Positions 9,726 through 12,209 of a stretch of DNA of 64,000 nt are shown piece after piece. Source of the stretch: an uncultured Bacteroidota bacterium (GTDB lineage Bacteria; Bacteroidota; Bacteroidia; Flavobacteriales; Flavobacteriaceae); assembly GCA_903913315.1 (NCBI GenBank), contig CAIWKX010000121.1, forward strand, positions 11,001-75,000, in the 5' to 3' direction. Made by a program: the position numbers and the translations under genes. The notes under the pieces are model-generated. The model was not told the DNA's origin and did no database searches. It worked only from the letters and a program-made list of their open reading frames with translations. Position 1 is the first letter of the stretch, and the number at the start of each line of letters is the position of its first letter.

Positions 9726-10538
9726 TTATCTTGTTTTTGGAGGTTCTTCTATTATAATATTATTAATAGTTGTCGTCTTTTCTGCATCCAATTTAACTAA
9801 TCCATTGATAATCGTATCGCCATTTCTAACTTTGATATTGATGGAATGATGAGATGTATCACTAATAATTTGGTTTTCTGCAATATTAAATTTTATAATT
9901 CCACTTCCTTCACCGCTTGCACTAATCAGTAAGTTTTCATTATTCAATACTATCTTTTCTGTGATTGTAAATAGAGCTATATTATTTTTTACGCTATTCA
10001 AGGTGATTTTTTTTGTGATTAAAGTTTTTATCTGATCATTATTAAAAGGCACTGTCAATGGTGCTTTATTTTCAAAACTTTCTCCAATTTTTAAAAGTTT
10101 TTTTGGAAAATCGATGTCGGGTTTTAAATCATTGAAAGCATATTTCAAGGCTGTTCTTGTTTTTTGATTGATCTCATTATTGTATATCGTATCAATTTTA
10201 AATTTATTGTCAACTGAAAGCTGCCCAACTAGTACCGAATTTGATATTGGATTTAAAGATTCTTTTCCTTCGCCAGAAACCGATAAGTTTCCAATTCGCA
10301 TAGACGCAGGCATTACTCCCTCTTTATTTAATTTTTCAGTCGTTGTAGTTCTTGTAACGCTAGTTTTACTTTCGCTTTTAGTTACTTTTTTATCGATAGT
10401 AGTTTCAGTAATGGATGAAATATTCATTTGAAGAGTATACTCTTTTTCAGGATGAATTTTACTTTCAAAACTATACCCCTCTTGACAATAGGTGTAGGAG
10501 GAAAACAAAATAAAAATAAGCAAGCAATATTTTTTCAT
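9726..10538 (-). CDS. Secreted hypothetical protein
   Basis: Signal peptide MKKYCLLIFILFSSYTYCQ when started at ATG 10538 (the track uses TTG 10547). Thr/Ser/Asn-rich with no recognisable motif. Confidence 0.5.
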   Translation of the reverse strand: MKKYCLLIFILFSSYTYCQEGYSFESKIHPEKEYTLQMNISSITETTIDKKVTKSESKTSVTRTTTTEKLNKEGVMPASMRIGNLSVSGEGKESLNPISNSVLVGQLSVDNKFKIDTIYNNEINQKTRTALKYAFNDLKPDIDFPKKLLKIGESFENKAPLTVPFNNDQIKTLITKKITLNSVKNNIALFTITEKIVLNNENLLISASGEGSGIIKFNIAENQIISDTSHHSINIKVRNGDTIINGLVKLDAEKTTTINNIIIEEPPKTR

Positions 10539-10934
10539 TTTTGGCAATTAACTTAGTTTAGTATAAAGTTAAATTTCTCACTTTGAGAAGATTTATATTT
10601 TTCAAATATACAAAACGCATTTAAGGATAATCTTAAAAAAATGTTGTATTCTAAAGTGAAATTTAGTAGCACTATTTTAGTCTAGCGGTAACTATATTAA
10701 AGAGTAATATAAACCTCATAAAATAAATAATGAAGTTAAATTACTGTACTATTTTGATTCAGTAATTCTTATTGTAGTATCAAAAATAAATTCTTCATTC
10801 TCATCCAATTTCAAATCATTATTTAAAAAATAATACCCAATTTCCTTAAAGTAGCATTTGTAGTCCTAAATGAGAAAAACACATAAAAAAGAACGCTAGA
10901 AGTACTCAGAAGACAAAAAAATACCTTCAAACGG

Positions 10935-11144
10935 TCTTCGGACAGCCACAAATTGTCTTCGGACAACTACAAATTGTCTTCGGACATCCACAACTTATCT
11001 TCGGACAACCAAAAACCGTCTTCGGACAACCACATACATTCTTCTGAAAACCTTTTTCTTACTTCTGAAAGGAAAATATTTATTTCTGACAAATAATTGC
11101 TTTCTACTGAAAAGCTAAAATGGTTTACTGATAAAGAATTGAAG
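10935..11144. repeat. Ten-unit tandem array with exact 21-bp register
   Basis: The core TCTTCGGACA starts at 10935, 10956, 10977, 10998 and 11019. Decayed cores follow at 11040 (TCTTCTGAAA), 11061, 11082, 11103 and 11124. There are no indels anywhere in the array. Confidence 0.9.
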
Positions 11145-11212
11145 TTTTTTTTACGTATAAGTTTACCCTAGTAGAGTTATATCTCCAAAAAAAGAAATCA
11201 AAAATAAATAAC

Positions 11213-11243
11213 ATAAAAAAGACCTTCCGCTATGGAAGGTCTT
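11213..11243 (-). terminator. Rho-independent terminator of the SHOCT-domain gene
   Basis: Stem AAGACCTTCC / GGAAGGTCTT with a 5-nt loop, followed on the minus strand by TTTTTT. Confidence 0.7.
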
Positions 11244-11299
11244 CTATGTATATTACGATAAACGATACTTTATTCTAAAATAAAAAAACAACAGAGTGA

Positions 11300-11710
11300 T
11301 TAATGTCCTAAAAGATTTTTCTTTTGCTGCTCAAACTCTGAAGCTGTAATTACACCAGCATCAGCAAGTTCTTTTAATTTTTTTAATTCATCAGCAATAC
11401 TCACCGAACTACCATGAGTATCTTTTTTTGAATTTAATTTTCTTTCTTCTATAGCTTTCTTAATTTGTTTCACTTCGTCTTTAGTAAAACCTGTAGCAGT
11501 CATTTGGGTGCCACCTGCAAAGATAGAAATGGTAGAAAAACCAATCATTGGAGTATCAATTTCTACTGAAGCGATATGATCAAAATCAAATTGTTTAGAT
11601 TCTCCTTTAAATAATCCTGGAATTTTTATGGTTAATCCAGTAGGTTCTAAATAAATTTCTGTTGGAAACATTTTATTTCCTGATGAAAGACGGGATGCAG
11701 TAAATTTCAT
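11300..11710 (-). CDS. Small protein with C-terminal SHOCT domain
   Basis: The C-terminus SIADELKKLKELADAGVITASEFEQQKKNLLG fits the SHOCT short C-terminal motif. The N-terminal ~95 aa looks PH-like/beta-rich. Confidence 0.6.
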   Translation of the reverse strand: MKFTASRLSSGNKMFPTEIYLEPTGLTIKIPGLFKGESKQFDFDHIASVEIDTPMIGFSTISIFAGGTQMTATGFTKDEVKQIKKAIEERKLNSKKDTHGSSVSIADELKKLKELADAGVITASEFEQQKKNLLGH

Positions 11711-11939: not shown

Positions 11940-12209
11940 ATGAAAAAAAAAATTGCAACAATGTCTTTAATGGCATTCCTTTTAGCCGGTACTGTAAATG
12001 CTCAAGAACAAAGACCTCAAGAAAAAGATAAAAAAGAGCACCACGACCACGATAAGGATAAAAAAGAAGGACGAGAAAAAGAGCATCATAAAAAAGGAGA
12101 ACACGAAGGTGATTACAAAAGAGATCACAAAGTAGAGCATAAGGGTGATCATAAAGGAGAATACAAAGATGACCACAAAAAAGAAGGAAACGAAAATGAA
12201 AAAAGATAA
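11940..12209 (+). CDS. Secreted histidine-rich, highly charged mini-protein
   Basis: Signal peptide MKKKIATMSLMAFLLAGTVNA. The mature ~67 aa are almost entirely K/E/D/H/G, with 10 His and xDHK/xEHK quasi-repeats. It has its own promoter box and terminator. Confidence 0.6.
   Translation: MKKKIATMSLMAFLLAGTVNAQEQRPQEKDKKEHHDHDKDKKEGREKEHHKKGEHEGDYKRDHKVEHKGDHKGEYKDDHKKEGNENEKR

Follow-up and report, generated by a model that had tools for sequence, protein, structure and literature searches.

The ten-unit tandem array of the window (the whole 64,000-nt stretch analysed here, from an uncultured member of the Flavobacteriaceae) is one odd repeat that leads to a rule found across the phylum Bacteroidota: the genes of an unannotated protein family are preceded by tandem arrays whose period corresponds to two turns of the DNA helix. 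The array is non-coding, and it is tentatively explained as a series of predicted protein-binding sites, helically phased on double-stranded DNA. No description of this module was found in the literature.

The window array and its surroundings

The core TCTTCGGACA can be read exactly in the window sequence at positions 10935, 10956, 10977, 10998 and 11019, and variant cores follow at 11040, 11061, 11082, 11103 and 11124, in one 21-bp phase with the exact cores (Table 1). The initial annotation had listed ten cores in this register, five of them as invariant, and all ten were confirmed in the sequence, including the exactness of the five. The absence of indels, also claimed there, agrees with the result of Tandem Repeats Finder (period 21, 4.8-6 copies, 0% indels, score 146), which detected no other array of this period in the window. 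Its surroundings are free of genes over 750 bp, from one minus-strand gene (9726-10538) to the next (11300-11710). Chance is excluded as an explanation of the window array because homologous heads and arrays recur elsewhere. Another repeat of the window, at 12093-12179, has a 12-nt period (7.2 copies, 66% match) and lies within ORF 11940-12209, which encodes a small, histidine-rich, secreted protein and adjoins the ars operon.

Table 1 Features of the array locus in window coordinates. Promoter and terminator assignments are consensus matches.
Feature	Position	Strand	Remarks
Cargo gene, 270 aa, signal-peptide-like N-terminus, no family match	9726..10538	-	
Left edge of the family homology	10547..10554	-	AAGTTAAT on the minus strand; AAGTTAGC in most copies
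Bacteroidota-type -7 box TATATTTG (TAnnTTTG) toward the cargo gene	10603..10610	-	ATTTTATATATTTG in most copies
Conserved platform spacer	10611..10888	.	homology among copies from about head-315 to the array end
Head, AAGAACGCTAGAAGTACTCAGAAGAC-A7-TACCTTCAAAC	10889..10932	+	20-nt block nearly invariant across copies
Ten-unit array	10933-11142 (unit coordinates)	+	strict 21-bp register
Strong units 1-5 (GGTCTTCGGACAnCnACAAAT)	10933..11037	+	homogenised part with variable copy number (1-8 units in relatives)
Tail units 6-10 (cores TTCTGA or TACTGA)	11038..11142	+	positionally conserved types, common to related arrays
T8 run	11145..11152	+	in most copies conserved, about 20-25 nt past the last unit
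Probable remnant: promoter (CTAGTAGAGTTATATC vs CTAGTTTTGATATTA) and first codons of the lost 231-aa gene	11168..11222	+	weak similarity
Intrinsic terminator of the SHOCT-domain gene (11300-11710, minus strand)	11217..11245	-	right edge of the remnant

Copies in the same genome and in relatives

Head and array recur in the genome of the window and in related genomes, where a check for the repeat had been proposed by the initial annotation, and also in metagenomes. The genome of the window has two further paralogous copies (contigs C31 and C169), and its three arrays share one common core; another copy is present in a second species of its genus, Flavobacterium. When the own assembly and 400 other Flavobacterium genomes were searched with the head motif, the element was found in only four (3, 1, 2 and 4 copies), three of them among the 400. 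About ten further copies came from scans of genomes and metagenomes; one of them is a metagenome orthologue of the window locus that is 99.15% identical and also has ten units. The head (AAGAACGCTAGARGTNCTCAGAAG-A-rich-TGCCCTGAAAC) hardly varies among the copies, and in all of them 7-12 units come after it with a constant 21-nt register; the number of units shifts between near relatives (7 vs 8, 8 vs 9, 8 vs 10).

The copy on contig C169 (G000:C169:7190-7470; loci L016 and L026) is a degenerate head and array situated between a gene for a DMT-type transporter and genes for peptidase M16; the same chromosomal site is occupied in a metagenome contig (L071) by an intact module with the 231-aa gene described below. 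At another locus (L031, copy G271d) the same invariant head is followed, from head+50 to +215, by 21-bp units of another sequence (CTTCCGTCAGCTnnTTTTAnn), which show a super-period of 42 bp, and this array adjoins a second 231-aa gene paralogue of that genome.

Strong and tail units

The initial annotation had interpreted the weaker units as a gradient of decay. The comparison of copies contradicts this: units 6-10 are conserved unit types whose positions are the same in related arrays. Among the last four or five units, separate types can be told apart (e.g. TTACTTCTGA, TTTCTGACA, GGTnnnCTAA) which match by position among arrays, and the last two are closer to the unit at the same position of other arrays than to their own neighbour. 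Identity between positionally matched tail units is 68-95% per position in the core (positions 4-10) and 30-64% elsewhere, with values of 0.77 over core positions 3-10 and 0.46 elsewhere; by this conservation of the tail cores, with the rest diverged, the core is under selection and the spacer nearly free. The head-proximal strong units, which are the only ones that vary in number (Table 1), resemble their neighbours, indicating concerted evolution.

The information content of the units is highest at positions 3-10, 16, 18 and 19. The core is held in phase in 135 of the 152 units of 17 arrays, the autocorrelation reaches 0.64 at lag 21 compared to 0.26-0.27 at lags 20 and 22, and the register is preserved even where the spacers are fully diverged. 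A 10.5-bp half-site sub-periodicity is weak (0.27-0.28 at lags 10-11, against a background of 0.24), and so are the autocorrelation peaks at lags 7 and 14.

The array is part of a conserved platform

Instead of standing alone, the array forms a module within a conserved platform of about 600 bp, which includes a promoter for variable accessory genes, the invariant head, the array and the T-run. The order, from left to right, is: minus-strand cargo genes; -7 box and 5' leader; a spacer of about 250 bp; head; array; T-run. The box at 10603..10610 was assigned by means of TAnnTTTG, which we take to be the Bacteroidota -7 promoter consensus, and the left homology edge (10547..10554) sits just upstream of the cargo start codon. 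The cargo slot of other copies harbours AbiGi, AAA_15+DUF4435, FRG, GNAT, PIN toxin-antitoxin, SHOCT or small secreted proteins. Positions 10897-10914 of the window, within the head, correspond to an array unit in inverted orientation; the inverted match between head and unit amounts to 10-13 of 17 bases, and the core of the head co-varies with that of the unit in three copies (L069, L070, L076).

Two other readings of these parts were considered and discarded. A sigma-54 or ECF promoter does not fit the head on inspection by eye, and transposon ends with arrays of the Tn7 or Mu kind do not fit either, as there is no inverted partner array within 2.5 kb of any copy.

Several observations were made on the cargo side of the platform. 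At L045 (G271:C1:1000130-1000285), L028 and L031 the cargo genes are separated by imperfect palindromes about 130 bp long; read in the cargo direction they start with GTTCAAC and end with GTTAGC, like the R''/R' boxes of integron attC sites. The platform homology ends in TTGTAGCG...AAGTTAGC just before the first cargo ATG, and this end resembles an attI site. At L044-L045 (G271:C1:996000-1017000) there are six tandem units, each made up of a tyrosine-recombinase ORF, a 387-aa ORF (presumably, from reading its sequence, an IS91-like Y2 transposase) and a conserved hairpin-plus-terminator end, with a different minus-strand cargo gene between each unit and the next. These transposase units are placed at the GTTC of the palindromes, and the hairpin-plus-terminator end occurs about 25 times in the G271 genome, where it also flanks array islands. 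SHOCT-domain proteins adjoin two of the three arrays of the window's genome, as the right-hand neighbour in the window and as the cargo gene on C31. The cargo slot may be called integron-like, by resemblance only; integrons are rare in Bacteroidota (PMC9024848).

The linked 231-aa protein family

At least eight copies have, on the plus strand downstream of the array, a conserved gene for a 231-aa protein. In 10 of 16 loci this gene is equipped with a TAnnTTTG box of its own at a distance of 36-37 nt from the ATG, and in one more at 41 nt; since this promoter is downstream of the array, the array lies outside the mRNA of the gene. The distance between the array and this promoter is about 90-350 bp in intact modules. 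The protein has 291 close relatives, and the family comprises 1,240 clusters at 50% identity; its occurrence is sporadic, with members in 7 of 101 genomes of Flavobacterium and, for the phylum, in 8 of 301 genomes, from 7 of 143 genera; one genome can have as many as nine paralogues. The protein had no match in Pfam, PHROGs, NCBIfam or PADLOC and no sequence match in PDB, and no homologue was found in 72,556 plasmids or 50,697 phages. Its AlphaFold model is all-helical (pLDDT 88.5), and Foldseek searches of the model against PDB and BFVD returned nothing below E = 0.1. The family is acidic (median pI 5.0). A ribbon-helix-helix N-terminus was considered for the protein and could not be supported. 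Longer family members (300-415 aa; L080:2925-4148, P0143, P0157, P0162 and others) carry one or two C-terminal FN3 domains; they have no signal peptide, and their N-terminal helical domain has no structural relative.

About 37 of the 41 family members examined are preceded by a tandem array with a period of 21, 42, 63 or 84 and 2-18 copies; the background rate is about one period-21 hit per 30-70 kb. The link between array and gene spans protein identities from about 70% to less than 30%, including other families and classes of the phylum. Unit sequences differ among lineages and among the paralogues of one genome (G488, G490, and copies b vs d of G271), some family genes have three or four different arrays in series, and a closely similar unit type, CGGACnGCTTCAAA, recurs in a genome from a different family of the phylum. 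Since the sequence of the unit varies and the period is constant, the invariant is the period, and the array is a hallmark of the 231-aa gene family. In one genome (G009) no linked gene was detected and the array persists, and in copy G271b the gene is truncated.

The window copy is an orphan, probably decaying

The window locus lacks the 231-aa gene, a probable remnant of which is given in Table 1. This genome has one intact copy of the gene, on contig C31, next to an array with the same core as that of the window (GGTCTTCGGACAG). Compared to its 99.15%-identical metagenome orthologue, the window array differs at 5 of 210 positions (about 1.8 expected), one of the five affecting the best-conserved core base; the window copy shows no sign of constraint in this comparison. 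It is an orphan and probably decaying; its array may still be occupied in trans by a factor encoded on C31.

Proposed phased binding sites as the best explanation

The initial annotation had hesitated between a repeat-peptide gene and same-face binding sites at the DNA level, and the second reading fits the data better than the first. We infer that the array acts as DNA, that something binds it, and which protein the binder would be. Each 21-bp unit covers two helical turns. It has a conserved core of 7-8 bp (ACTTCKGA), which a weaker patch follows at a distance of about 11 bp, so that all the conserved patches are on one face of the helix. The invariant head, as an inverted unit, caps the array, and the array would provide two divergent promoters, those of the 231-aa gene and of the accessory genes, with a common upstream region for control or architecture. 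The unit sequence differs by lineage and paralogue at a fixed period, so the binder would have to be module-specific, and the 231-aa protein, being the only constant neighbour, is the only candidate. The orphan array of the window would at most be bound in trans by the C31 product.

Same-face sites are favoured by the period, the patches about 11 bp apart, the register kept despite the divergence of the spacers and the position of the array upstream of the promoter of the gene. The evidence against them comes first from the candidate binder, which is acidic and has no recognisable DNA-binding fold or family, and whose longer relatives have two C-terminal FN3 domains, as would be more usual for a protein with a structural or surface role. 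A single specific binder is difficult to reconcile with genes that have three or four different arrays in series, some arrays are retained without an intact linked gene (G009, G271b), and the window array evolves without sign of constraint. Because the candidate is so unlike a DNA-binding protein, we put the same-face reading at slightly less than an even chance.

A broader proposal, possible but doubtful, is that of a phylum-wide Bacteroidota module in which a helical protein of orphan fold, with or without two FN3 domains, would be coupled to its own 21-bp array; the protein, or a partner recruited by it, would read the array in a paralogue-specific manner and assemble a phased nucleoprotein filament. 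In Flavobacterium this filament would head an integron-like accessory and defence slot and control its expression, and the window would hold a stranded array.

Other explanations of the array

The array could instead act as a plus-strand non-coding RNA that binds, titrates or is processed by the linked protein, in the manner of a type III antitoxin or a sponge. The layout agrees with this, as the repeats are directly upstream of a co-evolving protein gene in the same orientation, with a T-run between them, in a neighbourhood rich in abortive-infection and toxin-antitoxin genes; a TTTG-containing promoter-like box is also present about 45 nt before the head in many copies, but it is absent or inverted in three (G256a, G256b, L068). 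The T-run is not preceded by a consistent hairpin across copies, and the minimum free energies of 18 copies, compared to dinucleotide shuffles, gave z-scores of about 0 on both strands. Mismatches of the G.U type in the head and units show no strand bias (18 vs 21 between strands). A permissive scan with Rfam 15 returned only sub-threshold chance matches in the window region, and nine related loci gave no match at the Rfam gathering threshold. Transcription of the linked gene would start from a separate promoter, situated past the array, its all-helical product does not match a known RNase such as ToxN, and RNA motifs arranged like beads on a string would not need the exact 21-nt register of the diverged tail units. 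An RNA of this kind is, in our opinion, unlikely. Antisense pairing or self-targeting of the linked gene by the units was also considered and rejected, the complementarity being no better than in shuffled controls.

According to a second alternative, the units have no binder of their own and work as a phase-neutral spacer or expression rheostat: head and downstream promoter must share a helical face, only duplications of two turns (21 bp) are tolerated and accumulate, and the copy number tunes the linked gene. This would account for the universal period with widely varying sequence, the super-periods of 42, 63 and 84, the series of several arrays, the differences in copy number between near relatives and the fact that head and promoter are the best-conserved parts. 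Nevertheless, the core is far better conserved than the spacer even in old, diverged tail units, and the recurrence of the closely similar CGGACnGCTTCAAA unit type in a different family of the phylum is unexpected for neutral filler; we regard this alternative as quite improbable.

A neutral minisatellite, functionless in every copy, would be compatible with the variation in copy number among relatives and with the window copy, which evolves at least as fast as its flanks. This is very unlikely, as the association with the gene family, the fixed period and the higher conservation of core over spacer hold across the phylum, and all ten units are kept in the nearest orthologue.

The last alternative is a cryptic gene for a heptad-repeat peptide (plus-strand SSDSLKR or minus-strand LSEDRFR). 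The ORF check confirmed that no ORF of at least 60 aa covers the window array, and the two minus-strand readings quoted in the initial annotation are as it described them. In one of these (CGCPKTV) most differences between units had been attributed to third codon positions; across the copies, however, these positions fall on the best-conserved columns. Two frames are stop-poor (2.4 stops per 100 codons in +f0 and 2.3 in -m0, against 5.8-8.7 in the others), which is due to the fixed TCnTCkGA core. A coding frame would also find support in copy G271c, which has an ATG-initiated frame of 99 aa, in a metagenome protein called over such a frame, and in the serine at heptad position 4, encoded by AGC, TCT, TCG, TCC or TCA depending on the lineage. 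On the other hand, most of the 17 copies are interrupted by 1-4 stops at differing places when read in the best plus-strand frame, and 12 lack an in-frame ATG upstream; the frame is lost in units of the L082 type. Substitutions between close pairs are spread over codon positions 1, 2 and 3 (41, 52 and 49) without third-position bias, and synonymous changes are few compared to non-synonymous ones (17 vs 122 in +f0, 13 vs 129 in -m0). None of the three codon positions varies in the 20-nt head block, at a divergence of 30-45% between the linked proteins, and a search of 5.8 billion proteins returned only one called homologue, which requires TAG to be read as Q. The substitution pattern, the stops, the missing starts and the near-absence of protein homologues make a repeat-peptide gene barely conceivable.

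Comparison with known systems

The iterons of plasmids such as pSC101, R6K (gamma), P1 and F (ori2) share several characteristics with the array: direct repeats of about 20 bp at two turns, directly upstream of a co-evolving protein gene, with an inverted copy nearby and an AT-rich stretch beside them. In contrast to iterons, the linked family has no Rep_3 or winged-helix fold, the window array has no adjacent Rep gene, the DnaA box TTATCCACA (up to 1 mismatch) is absent between 10500 and 11300, the 231-aa gene is chromosomal without plasmid or phage homologues, and the arrays are longer (up to 18 units, several in series). The centromere arrays of the ParR/omega type (R1 parC, 10 x 11 bp; pSK41, 4 x 20 bp) may be likened to the present ones as cooperative, helically phased sites with family-specific sequences upstream of the gene of their own binder. 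Here, however, there is no adjacent gene for a ParM, ParA or TubZ NTPase, the neighbours being cargo and housekeeping genes, and a ribbon-helix-helix N-terminus, as noted above, could not be shown.

Type III toxin-antitoxin systems (ToxIN, CptIN, TenpIN) also combine a repeat array, a T-rich stop signal (here a T-run without a consistent hairpin) and a protein gene on one strand, are situated in defence-gene neighbourhoods and show co-variation of repeat and protein. They differ from this module in the length of the unit (34-45 nt, against 21 nt here), in their ToxN/AbiQ-like domain, to which the 231-aa protein has no Pfam, PADLOC or structural match, and in that the protein here is all-helical, with a -7 box of its own for its gene and no evidence of RNA structure. 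LytTR sites (9-bp direct repeats with a 12-bp spacer, period 21 bp) resemble the array in that a short conserved core is repeated directly at intervals of 21 bp ahead of a promoter; known sites are paired, whereas the arrays described here run to 7-18 units, their cores differ between paralogous loci of one genome, which a single host regulator would not explain, and no linked LytTR gene was seen. The match is limited to the 21-bp spacing. Pneumococcal BOX elements (boxA-boxB(n)-boxC) have a comparable build, with tandem units in varying number between a head and a tail, and likewise occur as several copies per genome, dispersed in differing gene contexts. Unlike BOX, the present element has only 1-4 copies per genome, goes with a single gene family, keeps to a period of 21 bp and has no stable RNA fold.

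Significance

The combination of a constant period with a varying sequence points to a specific, co-evolving and previously undescribed system of protein-nucleic acid recognition, and the array makes an uncharacterised protein family directly testable. In genome annotation, arrays of this type should neither be called peptide genes nor be dismissed as VNTRs. In Flavobacterium the module sits beside an exchange slot for abortive-infection, toxin-antitoxin and other genes, and it may help to explain how genes of this kind are placed and expressed.
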